Source of the DNA: Escherichia phage vB_EcoP_Bp7
Strand: one strand, 5' to 3'
DNA length: 52,615 nucleotides
Sequence record: NC_079181.1
The position numbers and the translations under genes are program-made. The notes below the pieces were generated by a model. The model ran no database searches. It saw nothing but the letters and a program-made list of their open reading frames with translations, and was not told the origin of the DNA. The stretch's first letter is position 1; every line of letters starts with the position of its first letter. Shown in pieces: positions 7,451 through 52,615 of this stretch.

Positions 7451-7490
7451 ATTAACAAGGAGCATTCATTGAGTGTTCCTGATTAATCTA

Positions 7491-7509
7491 ACATTAGTTG
7501 GATTTGAAG
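7491..7509 (+). promoter_or_regulatory. phage promoter-like motif P3 (acattagttggatttgaag)
   Basis: Conserved motif about 75 bp upstream of the 7583 gene. Confidence 0.55.
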
Positions 7510-8987: not shown

Positions 8988-9042
8988 TTAACAGAGGTCA
9001 TTCCACTTCGAGTGGCCTCGATTAATTATTACTGGAGTATTT

Positions 9043-9393
9043 ATGAAAACTTTATATATTGCACTGACAATACTGTTCGGAGTATTCGCATTTAAATCGG
9101 AAGCGTCTGTTCGCAACTTCCAGTGTGGCGGATACAAAATGTCCGTTGAAACAATTACAATGAGCCAGCCACTCATTGCAACAATTTCCTTGCACGAAGG
9201 TACTTGGATTGAGATTCCAGACAATGGGAATCCTAACCCAATGTCCACAGTGTTCTATAACACACAGAGCAGTAAGCTGGCTTTAGTTGGTGTTGACGCT
9301 GAGGAACGTTTAGTGCTACAGATTTATCGTGACATTGACTTCTTTCATGCCAAATTTCCACTTTTATCAACATATTGTAAGGAAGTTAAATGA
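9043..9393 (+). CDS. secreted protein (116 aa)
   Basis: N-terminal signal peptide MKTLYIALTILFGVFAFKSEA. Confidence 0.55.
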   Translation: MKTLYIALTILFGVFAFKSEASVRNFQCGGYKMSVETITMSQPLIATISLHEGTWIEIPDNGNPNPMSTVFYNTQSSKLALVGVDAEERLVLQIYRDIDFFHAKFPLLSTYCKEVK

Positions 9394-9623
9394 CGTCATC
9401 CGAATTTACCATTGATGGAGTACCGTACTTACTTGAATCCAGTTGCGAATATCGTCACTGGTCAGTAATTCGCGACCGAGTAGTCAAATTCTTGGAGCGA
9501 GTAGGGAAAGATGCGGCTATTCTGACTACAGCCACAGTAGAAGGAACAACCGAAATCAATCGGGAGCTTGTATCTTTTAAATTAACCATCAACCCAACAG
9601 GAAATCCATTCCGTGAAAGTTGA
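9390..9623 (+). CDS. hypothetical protein (77 aa)
   Basis: ORF with ATGA overlap. Confidence 0.45.
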   Translation: MTSSEFTIDGVPYLLESSCEYRHWSVIRDRVVKFLERVGKDAAILTTATVEGTTEINRELVSFKLTINPTGNPFRES

Positions 9624-9882
9624 AGAACTGGCTGACCATCTTGAGGCAGCAAAACGAGAGTCTGCAATTCAGTCAGGACGTATTGCAAAACTGAAAGGGC
9701 AAGACTCAACGTCCGAAGAAATCCAGCTGTTCACAGACAATATCTGGTTTTCAATGAATCGTGCACAGTTTATCGAGATTCAGGAAGAACGCCTTACTGA
9801 ACTGGAAAAGCGTGTAGAAACACTTGAGAGCTTGCTTGTAACACTGCAAGAAACTCTGGACCAGGAACTGAAAAATGTCTAA
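9613..9882 (+). CDS. hypothetical coiled-coil protein (89 aa, non-ATG start)
   Basis: ORF from the track; helical heptad-like sequence. Confidence 0.4.
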   Translation: MKVEELADHLEAAKRESAIQSGRIAKLKGQDSTSEEIQLFTDNIWFSMNRAQFIEIQEERLTELEKRVETLESLLVTLQETLDQELKNV

Positions 9883-10273
9883 CGTTAAGCTGGGCCAACG
9901 CTCCCTTGACCGACTCAAAGGTGTAAATCCTTCATTGGTGGCAGTTTTCAAGCGTGCATGTGAAACAATGCCGTTTGATGTAACTGTTCTTGAAGGTTTG
10001 CGTACTTATGAGCGTCAACAAGAGCTTTTAAAGCAAGGTGCAACCAAAGTTTCAGTTAGCCGACACATGTCAGGCAATGCTTTAGACATTGCACCATATC
10101 CGATTGACTGGAATGACCTTGAACGATTCCAAATTGTAGCTGAACACATGTTCAAAGCTGCAAAAGAGCTTGGAATTACCATTCGTTGGGGTGGAACATG
10201 GGAACGAACCTTCACTAAGCCAGTGAAATGGGCTAAGTTCCTGGATGCACCACACTTCGAACTTCCAGCATAA
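9875..10273 (+). CDS. peptidase M15-type peptidoglycan hydrolase (132 aa)
   Basis: Zinc-binding motifs SRHMSGNALD (H-x6-D) and DAPHFE, as in M15_3 / T5-type L-Ala-D-Glu endopeptidases. Confidence 0.75.
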   Translation: MSNVKLGQRSLDRLKGVNPSLVAVFKRACETMPFDVTVLEGLRTYERQQELLKQGATKVSVSRHMSGNALDIAPYPIDWNDLERFQIVAEHMFKAAKELGITIRWGGTWERTFTKPVKWAKFLDAPHFELPA

Positions 10274-10281
10274 CTTCATCA

Positions 10282-10572
10282 ATGGAGCATCCGATGAATT
10301 ACGAAGATATTCCAAGAGAGTTGAATGCACTAGAGTCAAGAACCATCCGTGCAGAGAATATTCTCCACCAGCACCTATCAATTAACGTGGGTGATGAAAA
10401 GAAGATGCAGTACACTATGGAACTTGACGATGTAGTCTACACTGTCAGTTACAACGAGAAGGCTGCTATCCTCAGTGCACTTATCAAAGGTGGGAATGAG
10501 CGAATCAATCAACTTAAGATTCTGGACAAAGAATTGAGAGGTACTTGGGAGAAACTAAATGCAAAACGATAA
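10282..10572 (+). CDS. hypothetical protein (96 aa)
   Basis: ORF from the track. Confidence 0.5.
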   Translation: MEHPMNYEDIPRELNALESRTIRAENILHQHLSINVGDEKKMQYTMELDDVVYTVSYNEKAAILSALIKGGNERINQLKILDKELRGTWEKLNAKR

Positions 10573-11107
10573 CATTACTCAAGCAGTAGAACAACTTAAG
10601 TCCTGGCGTAGAGATGAAACCTTATTGGTTCGTTTCTACACAGGCGAAACTAATTCTGAATTTGTAGATGCGTGGATTGATGGCCTGTCTTGGCGTCACT
10701 ATGATTTCGACATGCGGGAGTATTTGCATGAAGAATATGGCATTGAATATCCAGAAACCGGTACATACGACGTAATTGAATCAAATGAAGAGGATGTTAC
10801 CGAAGTTTGCTTTGCCAATGGCCTATTCAGTATTCGTAAATATGATAAGTTCAATGAGCTGCTTGTTGACACCGATTTGGATGTAATTCTTGCAGCATTC
10901 CGCAGCGGTGAGATTGATATTTTCACTGTGGATGATTTGAACGATATGTTCATCACACGTTGCGACTCAATTACAGAGTATTTGAAGCAAAGTGAGGCAC
11001 TGGATATTCCAGACCGCCTTGCACCATATATTGATTGGGATGCAATCACCAGAGATTATGGAAGTGACTACATTTTCTCTGAGGGAATACTGTTCTTAAA
11101 TGCGTGA
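10559..11107 (+). CDS. highly acidic protein (182 aa)
   Basis: Very D/E-rich throughout (e.g. EEDVTEV, DTDLDV, DIFTVDDLNDMF). Confidence 0.55.
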   Translation: MQNDNITQAVEQLKSWRRDETLLVRFYTGETNSEFVDAWIDGLSWRHYDFDMREYLHEEYGIEYPETGTYDVIESNEEDVTEVCFANGLFSIRKYDKFNELLVDTDLDVILAAFRSGEIDIFTVDDLNDMFITRCDSITEYLKQSEALDIPDRLAPYIDWDAITRDYGSDYIFSEGILFLNA

Positions 11108-11342
11108 TTTAAATATTGCTGAACTTGAGGCTGGATTGATTGTTCACCACCAGCCTCGAAACACTTTCTATCGTATTCTTGGGCCTACAAAGATTAAAAC
11201 TCACTGCGGAAGTTGGGTGGATGGGTTTGCTTACCAAGAAGTGAAGAAGTACGGGGACCATACTTTCTTGAGTATTGATTCTTCTACTATCTACACACGA
11301 CCGAAAGAGCTGTTTGATTCAGACTGGAAGGTTCTGGGATAG
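11100..11342 (+). CDS. hypothetical protein (80 aa)
   Basis: ORF from the track. Confidence 0.45.
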   Translation: MRDLNIAELEAGLIVHHQPRNTFYRILGPTKIKTHCGSWVDGFAYQEVKKYGDHTFLSIDSSTIYTRPKELFDSDWKVLG

Positions 11343-11410
11343 TTCCAAGCTGTTCCGTCGAAGTGCCAAGCGGGTTTTGTGCTCGCATTGGCCTTCGGCT
11401 TTAGTCTGAA

Positions 11411-11429
11411 ACATTAGTGGGATTTGATT
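11411..11429 (+). promoter_or_regulatory. phage promoter-like motif P4 (acattagtgggatttgatt)
   Basis: Conserved motif, preceded by tctgaa as in P5 and P6. Confidence 0.5.
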
Positions 11430-11551
11430 CGGACCACTTAGGGAAGAAAGGCATTATACACTTATCGCCAAATGGGTGTCAAGCACTTTCTTCATTTATT
11501 TTAACTTATTCTTATTATTCTTTTTGTTTGGAATATTGGAATAATTCTGAA

Positions 11552-11570
11552 ACATTAGTTGGAATTGAAG
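11552..11570 (+). promoter_or_regulatory. phage promoter-like motif P5 (acattagttggaattgaag)
   Basis: Conserved motif; followed at 11590-11660 by a structured element. Confidence 0.55.
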
Positions 11571-11589
11571 AGACAACATCAGATAAGAG

Positions 11590-11660
11590 CTTTGTAACTA
11601 GGTAGTCCGTCTGGTACCAGGGCGTGTGAGAACGTTCGATTCGTTCTACAAAGTTCTTTT
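11590..11660 (+). ncRNA. promoter-proximal structured RNA candidate with a tRNA T-arm-like hairpin
   Basis: CTTTGTA (11590-11596) pairs with TACAAAG (11647-11653); inner GAACG-TTCGATT-CGTTC hairpin and palindrome CTGGTACCAG; followed by TTCTTTTCG. Confidence 0.35.
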
Positions 11661-12204
11661 CGATGGAATGTTTCCATCAAATACATTTATCTTTTAACAT
11701 AGGCCAAAGGGCCGGAATACTTCTTCGCAGAAAGCTGTTCACTTGTTATAGCGATGTATTGGGATGAATTGGTACTAAATAAGCAAGCTGTTAGGGCTGA
11801 ATAATTAGAGGGTTATGCCTCATGCTTATGTTAGTCATTCGAAAATAGGTTTGTGCCACAAGCTGCTGGTGCTCTGAGGAAGTCGGACAAACAGGGCTTA
11901 GAGTGGCATAATCCGCACAAAACCGCGCCACCAGCTATGCCAAAGCGGGTGGATTGGGTGAATGTATTGGGAAGGGTTGCAAAGCCTCTGTGACACGCCT
12001 GAGCCGCAAGGCGACGACACTCATGTGATTAGCGTATCGCACCCTAACGGGAGTAACCCTTCGCCAATGCAGTTATCCAGAATTGACACAAACGGTAGGC
12101 AGTGGCCCGATTTTCGGCCTTCCTGCGCTACCCTGTGGCCTGTTCCTGGGCCAAAAGATGAGAAGAGAAGTCACAAACACTGAATCGAAAATTGGAGAGT
12201 TCCT

Positions 12205-12525
12205 ATGATTCGCAAGCATTCTGCTAAAGTTTTGACGTTAAGAAACGTACTAATGTTTCCGTCGAGTGGGGAAGGAGAGGAAGAAACAATCCACTTCGTT
12301 CTCGTTGGCGGGCGTTGGTACTATAACGGCACCAATTCTTTCCACGTAAGTTTGTCGGAGAAAGATGGATTCTGGAAGCACACCTTTAAGGAGTTGCTTG
12401 AAAGCAGTGCCAACTACACCCCTGCCGAAGTTAAGAAATATTTCTACTGCGGCCCAAACAAGTCCATGCAAATCGCAACTCGCAATTGGACAACAAACCA
12501 ACCGATTTACGGAGTTCCATTTTGA
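12205..12525 (+). CDS. hypothetical protein (106 aa)
   Basis: ORF with GGAGAG 6 nt upstream. Confidence 0.5.
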   Translation: MIRKHSAKVLTLRNVLMFPSSGEGEEETIHFVLVGGRWYYNGTNSFHVSLSEKDGFWKHTFKELLESSANYTPAEVKKYFYCGPNKSMQIATRNWTTNQPIYGVPF

Positions 12526-12812
12526 ACTTACAGGACAAATCTAAAGAAGAGTTGATTGAGATTATCCAGAAAGAGCACGAACTCGCTGGCATCACAATTA
12601 ACTTTGAACTCCAGGCAATGCAAGCTGTTGCTTTGGGGCACGGTCTGATGGCTACACTCATTCATGCCAAGAATGTGTTAGGCGTTGACAACGAAAAATA
12701 CCAAATTCTGGAGAAAGCTGCGCAAGAGCGGATTTCGCAGTGCTTGGTGACATTAGTTGATTTGGGAATCGACGCAGAAACTGCGAACAAACGTATCCTA
12801 CAAGGCCACTAA
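12486..12812 (+). CDS. hypothetical protein (start uncertain)
   Basis: ORF from the track; overlaps the upstream gene, so the true start may be internal. Confidence 0.4.
   Translation: MDNKPTDLRSSILNLQDKSKEELIEIIQKEHELAGITINFELQAMQAVALGHGLMATLIHAKNVLGVDNEKYQILEKAAQERISQCLVTLVDLGIDAETANKRILQGH
12750..12768 (+). promoter_or_regulatory. phage promoter-like motif P9 (acattagttgatttgggaa)
   Basis: Conserved motif inside the 3' end of the preceding ORF, upstream of the 12814 gene. Confidence 0.45.
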
Positions 12813-12813
12813 A

Positions 12814-13488
12814 ATGTCTTATCATGATGATGACAAAGAGATTGCACTATCAACGTGTAAGCAATGGCTCAATGATAATGATGCCGTCTATCTTGCCAAG
12901 GAAGATGTTATCATTATGTGGGTCCATTTTAATCCAGAATCGAAGCGCGGTGAGTGGCAACGCTACAAGATGAAAGAGGCTTGTCGCATAATTAAAGCCA
13001 CACGCGCTGGCTTCTCTGCTATGAAGTATATTAAGCCAGAGATGCTTATGCTTGCTGCACAGGAAGAAGAACGTGCGTATAAGCAAGCTGTTAAATCTCG
13101 TTCAACTGTTCCTCCAGAGTTCTTTAATTTGGAGCGCGCTGGACACTTCAACAATTTAGAAATGTTGACACTGTGCCTGTTGCAAGAATTAGTTGGAAGA
13201 GGACAAAACATTGAAGCTGTTTGTCTTGGAGAACTCATGAAAGAGTTGTTCTCGGCAAAGGGCTTTGCTGTGCCAAACCGAACTTTACGCTGGAAATTGT
13301 TGCGAGCAGTCGCGCAAGAAGCTGGTGTAGTTGTTCGTGACAGAACAAACCGACTCACTGTAACTGGAGTTGGGCGTTTTGTAGCAATCCAGATTGAGGG
13401 TTATGACGAATCAATCATCACTGAACTCACTGTCGCTGAGACAAAGGATTTAGTAAATAAAACACTAGAACGATTCAATAGATATTGA
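12814..13488 (+). CDS. hypothetical protein (224 aa)
   Basis: ATG at 12814 in frame with the 12757 track ORF, directly after the upstream stop. Confidence 0.55.
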   Translation: MSYHDDDKEIALSTCKQWLNDNDAVYLAKEDVIIMWVHFNPESKRGEWQRYKMKEACRIIKATRAGFSAMKYIKPEMLMLAAQEEERAYKQAVKSRSTVPPEFFNLERAGHFNNLEMLTLCLLQELVGRGQNIEAVCLGELMKELFSAKGFAVPNRTLRWKLLRAVAQEAGVVVRDRTNRLTVTGVGRFVAIQIEGYDESIITELTVAETKDLVNKTLERFNRY

Positions 13489-13950: not shown

Positions 13951-14319
13951 GTTGCCGATGGCAGACTTGAGAGACTAAGCTAAATCGATCTGGCATGCAC
14001 TGGAAGTTTTCCGGTGCTGCCTTGAACCCATTCCAGAGTGAGTGGGCTTCAATTTGTACATAATCCAAACACCATTGCATGAGCCTTCGACGGGAGGCAA
14101 TGTTGGGAAATTTGTTGTGTACAAATTGAAGTAGTTTTCTGAGTCTTACGACGGGCCTAAACTGCCTGAAGTTATTGCGACTGTTTTATTCATTTAAAAT
14201 AAATGCAAATGATTCTGAAATGCGAGTTGCGGCTTAATTAAATTTAAGTCTTCTCCGTGGTCTTCCAATCCCACGTAACCAAATTTGGCGCATTGTGGCT
14301 CCGAGATGTGATTAATAAA

Positions 14320-50850: not shown

Positions 50851-51950
50851 TGGCTTACACTACCTTTTCACAAACCAAGAATAACCAACTACTAGAGCCA
50901 ATGTTCTTTGGTCAGAACGTTAACGTTGCTCGATATGACCAACAGAAGTATAGCATCTTCGAGAAGTTAATCGAAAAGCAGTTATCTTTCTTTTGGCGAC
51001 CTGAAGAGGTTGATGTTAGTCAAGACCGAATTGACTATGCTGGTCTTCCTGAATGCGAGAAGCACATCTTCACCAGCAATTTACGATACCAAATCCTGCT
51101 TGATTCCATTCAGGGACGTGGACCAACCACAGTTTTGCTACCAATTGTGAGCATTCCTGAGCTGGAAACCTGGATTGAAACTTGGTCATTCTCAGAGACA
51201 ATTCACTCCCGTTCTTACACGCATATTATTCGTAATATTGTCACAGACCCAAGTGTAATTTTCGACGAAATTGTGGAGAATGAGCACATTAAAATGCGTG
51301 CAATTGGCATCTCCCAATATTATGACGAGCTTCAACATCTAACTTCCATGTGGCATCTGCATGAAGATGAAGTAGACCTTCGTGAGCTTAAGAAGAAGCT
51401 GTATTTATGCCTCATGTCCATTAATGCACTAGAAGCAATCCGCTTTTATGTCAGTTTTGCTTGCTCATTTGCCTTCGCTGAACGCAAGTTGATGGAAGGG
51501 AATGCCAAGATTATTCGCTTAATTGCTCGTGATGAAGCACTCCATTTGACCGGAACTCAACACATGCTGAACCTTCTTGCAAGCGGTGTTGATGACCCAG
51601 AAATGGCAGAAATTGCTAAAGAATGCCGTCAAGAATGCCAACTAATGTTCGAAAATGTAGCCCAACAAGAGAAAGATTGGGCTGATTATTTGTTCAAAGA
51701 TGGCTCAATGATTGGCCTAAACAAGCAAATTCTGTGCGGATATGTGGAATATATCACGAATATTCGTATGCAAGCAGTTGGATTAGATGCTCCATTCAAA
51801 GGTGCTACTAACCCGATTCCTTGGATTAACGCATGGCTGAATTCGGATGCTGTACAGGTTGCTCCACAAGAAACGGAAATTAGTTCGTACCTTGTCGGGC
51901 AGATTGATTCCGAAGTGGACACCAATGCTCTGGGCGGATTTGAGCTGTAA
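50850..51950 (+). CDS. nrdB: class Ia ribonucleotide reductase beta subunit, host-like
   Basis: Near-identical over most of its length to remembered E. coli NrdB ([11 protein letters not shown]..., [40 protein letters not shown]-terminal [14 protein letters not shown]). Confidence 0.92.
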
Positions 51951-52092
51951 CGATTATATGTGAGAAGAGATTCGATGCGTTAGCGTCGTTTCTCTTTGAG
52001 CTAGAATAAGACAAGTAAATTAAATATTTATTTATTCCCAATATTGCTACAATATTAAGAGTAGTATTAGGAATGCGTAAAGTTAAATGGTA

Positions 52093-52149
52093 CATGGTCG
52101 GTCAACTGTATCTGGATAGTAATTCGTTCATGGTCGGTCAGCTGTATCT
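52093..52149. repeat. two 21-bp direct repeats (catggtcggtcaRctgtatct)
   Basis: Copies at 52093-52113 and 52129-52149. Confidence 0.7.
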
Positions 52150-52208
52150 CCTTCGGAGAAGTTATCTCGCCGAAATTTGTTCGAATGGAAAACCGACTAT
52201 TAAATAAA

Positions 52209-52233
52209 TTTTTTTTTTTTTTTTTTTTTTTTT
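52209..52233. repeat. 25-nt poly(T) homopolymer
   Basis: Uninterrupted T run preceded by TAAATAAA. Confidence 0.9.
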
Positions 52234-52330
52234 CAATATTGCTACAGAATTAATGAGACTCAAATTGTTTCAATATTATCGAGACTCGAATTGTTACGAT
52301 ATTAATGAGACTAGAATTGTGGCAATTGCT
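52234..52330. repeat. three tandem degenerate ~30-bp repeats (core atattaNNgagactNNaattgt)
   Basis: attaatgagactcaaattgtt / attatcgagactcgaattgtt / attaatgagactagaattgtg. Confidence 0.65.
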
Positions 52331-52531
52331 CACTTCGCTCGCTTTATATTATAATTTTATTTTTGGGCCAGCGGGGAGGGGAAGCCCAACGTCCTATCGG
52401 ACTTAAAATACGGTCCCTACTCCAACTTTTTCCTACAGCCTATCGGCTTTCAAACAACACCAAGTTAGGCGCTTCGCTTATGGGTCAAGGTCAAAGTCTC
52501 CGTGCTGTTGTAACAATGGCACAGGTTTGTG

Positions 52532-52550
52532 ATATTAGTTGGACGTGAAT
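52532..52550 (+). promoter_or_regulatory. phage promoter-like motif P8 (atattagttggacgtgaat), upstream of the RNAP gene if circular
   Basis: Conserved motif about 65 bp before the window end; RNAP ATG is at base 1. Confidence 0.5.
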
Positions 52551-52615
52551 TGTGTAATGGCTACGCTATTATAATCCGTTTCAGTTAAATCATACACAAT
52601 CTTGGAGACTTACAA

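Follow-up and report, generated by a model that had tools for sequence, protein, structure and literature searches.

In the sequence record of Escherichia phage vB_EcoP_Bp7 (NC_079181.1; 52,615 nucleotides, hereafter the window, taken at its full length), a gene at positions 10559 to 11107 encodes a highly acidic protein of 182 amino acids (aa) that is very likely a member of the ArdA superfamily, in a divergent phage version. The original prediction had proposed, from composition, a mimic of DNA or a factor acting against restriction, with Ocr and ArdA as examples, and had disclaimed any similarity to either that could be seen by eye. That proposal gains support here, and the profile searches carry it further, pointing to a homologue of ArdA itself; of the two proteins it named as examples, ArdA proved to be a relative, whereas for Ocr there was neither a Pfam match nor a fold match. 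Sequence comparison argues firmly for homology to ArdA, and an anti-restriction function is supported by this homology together with the genomic context. The protein is probably a dimeric ArdA-type DNA mimic that would block type I restriction-modification (R-M) enzymes, although type I inhibition as its main role appears somewhat less certain than its membership of the superfamily. The placement of the open reading frame (ORF) in the original prediction was exact in strand, start codon and number of codons:

10559-11107, + strand: coding sequence of the acidic ArdA-like protein, 182 aa, stop codon included (ORF list, ATG start; PHROG 14321)

Over its full length the protein matched PHROG 14321, 'anti-restriction protein' (9e-52). 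Pfam ArdA (PF07275) was the top match in all 12 clade members within an alignment of close relatives, at levels ranging from sub-threshold to significant (best 5.5e-9), and PF07275 is also assigned by precomputed annotation to more distant homologues obtained by profile search (P0049-P0069, 30-40% identity). A HMMER search of 1.84 billion representatives with the clade profile returned 164 matches, 55 of which were sampled; 47 of these corresponded to Pfam ArdA (best 1e-33), and no family other than ArdA appeared among the 55. A search of the PDB sequences with the single sequence did not recover ArdA, and the profile of the 55 sampled sequences had there a sole match, 2w82_A, the ArdA encoded by ORF18 of Tn916 (E 4.6e-7, residues 37-162). 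When the close clade was compared by hhalign with 24 ArdAs, all of them Pfam-verified and including Tn916 ORF18 at 6.6e-45, the probability was 99.5% and the E value 2.1e-22 over residues 94-182, a stretch limited to 89 columns at the C-terminal end (domain 3 and a portion of domain 2). Homology to verified ArdAs is thus demonstrable, whether by profile or transitively. The genomic context provides a further link, since P0057, a Pfam-positive ArdA with 35% identity to the window protein, occupies the same slot in a divergent 53-kb Chaseviridae-like contig, where the order is M15 endolysin, small ORFs, ArdA, small ORF, a conserved 223-aa protein, Thy1 and primase-helicase. Because of this shared slot, P0057 is considered an orthologue.

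Structure prediction, one of the checks proposed at the outset, yielded a three-domain ArdA-like fold: the AlphaFold2 model is predicted to have a layout like that described for ArdA (PMC2731889). The parts of the protein, and the motifs that could be placed on it, are as follows:

10559-10618, + strand: N-terminal helix, residues 1-20 (helix 3-15 in the model), of lower confidence (pLDDT, the model's per-residue confidence score, 66-74)
10619-10828, + strand: ArdA domain-1-like region, residues ~21-90, with strands 22-27, 35-40 and 69-75 plus short helices; boundaries approximate
10829-10945, + strand: ArdA domain-2-like helical region, residues ~91-129, with helices 92-104, 107-116 and 127-130; boundaries approximate
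10946-11104, + strand: ArdA domain-3-like region, residues ~130-182, from hhalign, the PDB profile match to 2w82 and the model
10994-11038, + strand: equivalent of the 'antirestriction motif', residues 146-160, corresponding to Tn916 126-140 by residue mapping
11090-11095, + strand: equivalent of the VF motif, L178-F179, aligned to Tn916 I160 F161

The N-terminal helix has no counterpart in Tn916 ArdA, and the alignment to 2W82 begins at window residue ~22. The domain-1-like region is larger than ArdA domain 1, and its hairpin LLVRFYTGETNSEFVDAWI aligned to VYIANLGKYNEGELVGAWF of ArdA. Within the domain-2-like region lies a four-residue insertion specific to Carltongylesvirus (EIDI, residues 118-121). 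The domain-3-like region constitutes the best conserved part of the protein, and in the model it is built of strands 131-134, 171-174 and 177-180 and helices 138-144, 152-157 and 160-170, the chain ending on a strand.

In ArdA, domain 3 is the dimerisation domain and the 'antirestriction motif' forms a small hydrophobic dimer interface, to which L127, L134 and Y137 of Tn916 ArdA provide most contacts; Y137 bonds D139 and D146 of the partner, and I138 stabilises loops (PMC2731889). When the Tn916 sequence was added to the 55-sequence alignment with MAFFT, residues P131, L134, Y137, I138, D139, Y140 and D146 mapped to P151, L154, Y157, I158, D159, W160 and D166 of the window protein, the last of these just downstream of the motif, while L127 fell in a gap. 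Among clade members P151 and D159 are invariant and L154 and Y157 nearly so, and I158 is invariant in the shallow clade alignment (A1) and nearly invariant in a second one (A2). The residues of the antirestriction motif at the dimer interface can accordingly be recognized by alignment. The same holds for the VF motif, which in Tn916 is essential and together with F91 holds domains 2 and 3 together (PMC2731889); F179, its second residue in the window protein, is invariant in 30 clade members. F91 itself aligned by MAFFT to F122, inside a clade-specific insertion, and this equivalence is tentative.

The high acidity on which the proposal had been founded was borne out by calculation of isoelectric point (pI) and charge. 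The protein contains 23 Asp and 18 Glu (22.5%) versus 14 Lys plus Arg (7.7%), which leaves a net charge of -27; our own titration calculation gave -26.6 at pH 7, and the pI lies between 3.81 (EMBOSS pK set) and 4.03. The value of 4.05 given by Biopython is the floor of its algorithm, and the pI was recomputed. Compared with the 88-89 ORFs of the window, this one is the most acidic. Each of the acidic strings quoted from it was located (NEEDVTEV, residues 76-83; VDTDLDV, 103-109; EIDIFTVDDLNDMF, 118-131), but the description of the protein as acidic throughout was slightly overstated: charge is spread along the chain, ranging from 0 to -7 in 20-residue windows, and residues 1-30 and 81-100 are near neutral. 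At 21 of the 41 acidic positions, 70% or more of 30 clade members also have an acidic residue. These figures agree with what is expected of an ArdA (pI ~4, net charge ~-25 to -30 per monomer), and they nearly equal those of an experimentally active plasmid ArdA (-25.9, pI 3.82); the corresponding values for Tn916 ArdA are -30.8 and 3.66. Two other small ORFs on the + strand, of 72 aa (from 3317) and 90 aa (from 21261), are nearly as acidic, with pI 3.9 and 3.98 and approximately -0.12 to -0.15 charge per residue; they could encode other mimics or simply acidic small proteins.

Over the ArdA region the DNA of the window is 94-95% identical to that of Escherichia phages Bp10, TH53 and Mangalitsa, all members of Carltongylesvirus (Chaseviridae, Cleopatravirinae), the phiEcoM-GJ1 group of E. 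coli myophages. The protein is 97.8% identical to the 'antirestriction protein' of PO103-1 and Mangalitsa (Mangalitsa_024), from which four residues differ, and 79% identical to the 'putative antirestriction protein' gp22 of phiEcoM-GJ1. Since near-identical copies are already annotated in this way, its identification as an antirestriction protein is not new; the Mangalitsa record notes, however, that the label was transferred by BLAST from phiEcoM-GJ1. The Chaseviridae 'antirestriction proteins' (phiEcoM-GJ1 gp22, ST32 gp26, Mangalitsa_024 and those of PO103-1, 4HA13, Faunus and phiA050; PHROG 14321) are orthologues at 30-98% identity, equally long and occupying the same place behind the endolysin gene, with no substantive difference from the window protein. 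Other orthologues are mislabelled, as 'tail fiber protein' in MLP1 (OK148439), PYps3T/4T/16T/23T and FXie-2024a (PP107930), and as 'replication inhibitor protein' in Pel53 (PP952070). The latter is a Carltongylesvirus-like genome deposited as 'Staphylococcus phage Pel53' with host Staphylococcus hyicus, an implausible host for the group. As to the ArdA that served as a control for Silas et al. (bioRxiv 10.1101/2023.04.06.535777), its identity with a Chaseviridae protein was considered and rejected: it is a 169-aa ArdA, WP_000129958.1 on NZ_CP028579.1, which matches the window protein over 42 C-terminal residues only (38% identity, E 0.002). No homologue of gnarl3 from the same study (phage Mangalitsa, QEG07807.1) was found in the window.

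Relative to the lineage L003, the ArdA-like gene shows 35% identity at the protein level, versus 70% for the neighbouring endolysin and 81% for a 243-aa protein. By these figures it evolves much faster than its neighbours, a behaviour typical of counter-defence genes. The endolysin, a 96-aa ORF and the ArdA-like gene share ~98% protein identity with Mangalitsa and 83-86% with SA91KD, whereas for the flanking genes at 9043-9882 and 12486-13488 the pattern is reversed (44-93% to Mangalitsa, 92-100% to SA91KD). Because the block at 9875-11107 and its flanks have opposite identity patterns, the comparison indicates that these three genes are exchanged as a block among Carltongylesvirus genomes.

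The immediate surroundings of the gene comprise the following elements:

10547-10552, + strand: ribosome-binding site GGGAGA, 6 nt before the ATG, read off the sequence
10282-10572, + strand: 96-aa ORF upstream, its 3' end overlapping the start of the ArdA-like gene by 14 nt
11100-11342, + strand: 80-aa ORF, final gene of the block, its ATG overlapping the stop of the ArdA-like gene by 8 nt (PHROG 2652, unknown function)
9875-10273, + strand: endolysin gene (L-alanyl-D-glutamate peptidase) in the same tightly packed block (PHROG 465, 7e-56)

An identical ribosome-binding site is listed for the ST32 orthologue (PMC6266442). The reading frame is kept in more than 50 full-length homologues with identities down to ~30%, and for this reason the ORF at 10559-11107 is, on comparative grounds, a real gene. 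It forms part of a tightly packed, co-oriented gene block (9043-11342), and the endolysin is its conserved upstream neighbour across Chaseviridae, as seen from synteny in the lineages L003-L005. At a larger scale, the gene lies in a block of small ORFs between the RNA polymerase (RNAP) gene at 1-1941 and the replication genes, which start from ~16.8 kb. Position 1 of the window is the ATG of this 646-aa T7-like RNAP, and the window closes with ~660 bases devoid of coding sequence (51951-52615), which contain 25 consecutive T (52209-52233) and end in the ribosome-binding site of the RNAP gene. Since the start is the RNAP ATG and the end holds its ribosome-binding site, the window is apparently an entire genome that was opened at this gene. 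Only positions 154-816 of the PHROG 414 profile are matched by the RNAP, which is therefore without the usual N-terminal part.

The motif AACATTAGTKGGA, taken from SA91KD promoters annotated 'similar to promoter of phiEcoM-GJ1', was found on the + strand at 2266, 7490, 11410, 11551, 13517 and 21485 and, with one mismatch, on the - strand at 51637-51649. These seven matches in the window, versus 0.11 expected, suggest that the motif probably marks promoters of the phage RNAP. Four elements delimit the presumed transcription unit:

7490-7502, + strand: nearest upstream promoter motif of the phage-RNAP type, AACATTAGTTGGA, from the motif search
8994-9019, + strand: terminator-like hairpin between the 7490 motif and the block 9043-11342 (-16.4 kcal/mol, z -4.8; annotated terminator in SA91KD)
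11357-11399, + strand: strong hairpin closing the gene block (-27.8 kcal/mol, z -4.8, 0 of 200 shuffles as good; the homologous SA91KD site is annotated as a terminator)
11410-11422, + strand: next promoter motif after the closing hairpin, from the motif search

The motif at 7490 is the probable promoter of the unit that contains the ArdA-like gene, if the hairpin at 8994 is read through. Because the gene lies between this motif and the hairpin at 11357-11399, it is probably transcribed by the phage's own polymerase once that enzyme has been made. The gene had been assigned to the early region, which agrees with its location among the small ORFs that separate the RNAP gene from the replication genes and fits less well with its adjoining the endolysin gene downstream of a phage-RNAP-type motif; early expression is plausible from position. 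Just after the ArdA block the two tandem motifs at 11410 and 11551 stand 141 bp apart, in an ORF-poor region of ~860 bp directly 3' of the block (11343-12204) that also holds the closing hairpin. No convincing ORF was found in this region, and no Rfam family in the window at gathering thresholds; three small ORFs are annotated in part of the homologous region of Mangalitsa. The region might give rise to a non-coding RNA of high abundance or specify small peptides.

Restriction-site content of the genome bears on what the protein might be needed for. GATC occurs once in the whole window (at 13987) versus 163-199 sites expected, and many 6-bp palindromes are absent, such as AAGCTT (0 vs 15-20) and ATGCAT (0 vs ~16), as well as GAGCTC, AGGCCT, ACTAGT and TACGTA. 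GATC is also nearly absent from Mangalitsa and SA91KD and does not occur in ~16 kb of a divergent Chaseviridae contig, where 61 sites were expected; a literature search found no paper discussing GATC avoidance in Chaseviridae. By contrast, the bipartite targets of eight type I enzymes are at or above expectation, among them those of EcoKI (6), EcoBI (13), EcoAI (7), EcoR124I (18) and EcoprrI (23), the expected counts for the first four being 6-12. Since GATC and the palindromes are depleted and type I sites are not, passive site avoidance extends to the targets of type II enzymes and leaves those of type I untouched. An active type I inhibitor would be expected in a phage of this kind, which has rid itself of type II sites yet cannot do so with the ever-changing type I sites. 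The EcoP15I-type site is distributed asymmetrically, with 6 occurrences on the + strand as CAGCAG versus 61 as CTGCTG (total 67 vs 33 expected), which may be explained by codon usage (CTG-CTG) with all genes on one strand. A bias of EcoP15I-type sites to one orientation would also blunt type III restriction, as is known for T7.

By analogy with characterised ArdAs, the protein would be expressed by the phage's own RNAP from the promoter motif at 7490 and would fold into three small domains in a row, with the C-terminal domains pairing to give an elongated, highly negative homodimer. Such a dimer would imitate bent B-form DNA and fill the DNA-binding groove of host type I R-M enzymes (HsdM2S1 with or without HsdR), and the unmodified phage genome, in which type I sites are as frequent as normal, would thereby be spared cleavage. 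In Tn916 ArdA, the carboxylates form two helical ribbons that superpose on the phosphates of B-DNA and are continuous across the dimer (D109, D111, D112, D115, E122, E123 and E129). For the window protein, we infer dimerisation, DNA-like carboxylate placement, type I enzyme binding and sufficiently early expression.

Several observations weigh against this interpretation. As a single sequence, the protein falls below the gathering threshold of Pfam ArdA (18.4 vs 27 bits, E 0.0035, residues 68-171); neither it nor three homologues had a match in NCBIfam, and tblastn against 72,556 plasmids gave no match at E<=1e-3. Homology at the sequence level is demonstrable for the C-terminal half only, domain 1 depending on the predicted structure and the short hairpin alignment. 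Among the seven acidic positions of Tn916 ArdA that span the interface, only four aligned to Asp or Glu (D136, E140, E146 and D149), in a stretch where the alignment is uncertain. No experiment on any Chaseviridae homologue was found in the searchable literature, and gp119 of Fletchervirus, an ArdA-like phage protein, inhibits a different enzyme, EndoV (PMC13091555). Finally, the gene lies ~10.5 kb into the genome, after the RNAP gene and behind a phage-type promoter and a hairpin, and its product may be made later than T7 Ocr, which adds a mild uncertainty to the mechanism.

The example of gp119 raises the question of whether the protein might be an ArdA-fold DNA mimic that has been retargeted and would act mainly not on type I R-M but on some other DNA-binding protein of the host, be it a repair nuclease, a different defence system or a factor of transcription or of the nucleoid. 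DNA mimics do differ in range, since Ocr blocks BREX and plasmid ArdA does not (PMC10149784), and ArdA proteins have been reported to affect gene regulation (PMC13300388). In addition, the clade is very divergent, lying below the Pfam cutoff, with an added helix at the N-terminus, a domain 1 of increased size and a fast rate of evolution, and the position of the gene behind a phage-RNAP promoter motif suggests that its product is perhaps not immediate-early. Nevertheless, the protein retains the motifs of structure and dimerisation by which functional ArdAs are defined, and it equals full-length ArdA in overall size, charge and three-domain layout, while the match of gp119 is confined to domains 2-3. 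Judged by composition alone, the phage DNA bears no sign of the unusual bases that motivated the role of gp119, and with type I sites at normal density a type I inhibitor would be needed. On balance we regard retargeting as unlikely, while giving it some weight. A related and slightly more doubtful possibility is that the Chaseviridae proteins constitute a phage-specific, fast-evolving ArdA subfamily whose range of targets has moved or broadened past type I R-M, for example towards further DNA-binding proteins of defence or repair, or which has been shaped to evade decoy sensors such as Ronin and PARIS. The subfamily is distinguished by the N-terminal helix, the enlarged domain 1, the lack of plasmid relatives detectable by pairwise comparison and apparent phage-RNAP promoters, and detection by abortive systems such as Ronin is known to differ between ArdA and Ocr (bioRxiv 10.1101/2023.04.06.535777).

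Inhibition of type I enzymes by an ArdA-type mimic has also to be set against readings that dispense with ArdA altogether. That the acidity is incidental, the protein being no DNA mimic but a structural or other product as some GenBank labels would have it, seems to us very improbable. The labels 'tail fiber protein' and 'replication inhibitor protein' do exist in the databases, but they sit on orthologues 75-87% identical to proteins called antirestriction elsewhere, so that annotation errors are the simplest reading; family, profile and fold searches gave no similarity to tail-fibre or replication proteins, the gene belongs to the small-ORF block, far from the structural module at ~34-51 kb, and all the homology evidence points to ArdA. 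Even less credence, indeed next to none, can be given to a mimic of the Ocr type (T7 gene 0.3) or a chance acidic ORF related to the archaeal primase PriL. The charge does resemble that of Ocr, and weak matches to the PriL large subunit appeared among PDB sequences when the query was the single sequence (E 0.26) or the shallow profile A1 (E 0.006, ranking above ArdA). We rejected the kinship with PriL, as those matches vanish with deeper profiles and have no fold support, and likewise that with Ocr, to which there is no Pfam match and no similarity in sequence or fold.

If the protein is indeed a type I inhibitor of the ArdA superfamily, it would explain how this group of myophages of E. coli, Yersinia and Shigella crosses the type I barriers between strains while avoiding type II sites, which bears on host-range prediction. 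Several phages of the group are under development for biocontrol. A guess made from composition and an inherited database label that was never justified become a documented case of remote homology with its conserved motifs named. The clade lies below the Pfam threshold and may be missed by automated anti-defence annotation, and several GenBank records are flagged here as giving orthologues the wrong names ('tail fiber protein', 'replication inhibitor protein').

Among known systems, the closest point of reference is Tn916 ArdA (ORF18; PF07275; PDB 2W82, also in the EcoR124I complexes 7BTO and 7BTR), to which the window protein is only ~20% identical. The window protein departs from it by an additional helix of ~20 residues at the N-terminus, by a longer domain 1 and by the EIDI insertion in domain 2, and several of the acidic interface residues of Tn916 ArdA are not conserved. 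The genetic setting differs as well, since ArdA belongs to the leading region of plasmids and transposons, whereas the window protein is encoded by a virulent myophage and its gene is probably transcribed by the phage RNAP. With Ocr of T7 (gp0.3) it shares being an acidic phage protein of net charge ~-27 per monomer and, as predicted for the window protein, a would-be dimeric DNA mimic acting against type I R-M. Ocr has an unrelated fold and family, however, comprises 117 aa, is encoded by the first gene entering the cell, is transcribed by the host RNAP and blocks BREX as well, an activity that plasmid ArdA does not have (PMC10149784). Other ArdA-derived proteins are found on phages or chromosomes, namely gp119 of Fletchervirus and sArdN/sArdC, and they show the scaffold to be modular and re-usable: gp119 matches ArdA domains 2-3 only and sArdN/sArdC are single-domain fragments, whereas the window protein is predicted to keep all three domains.

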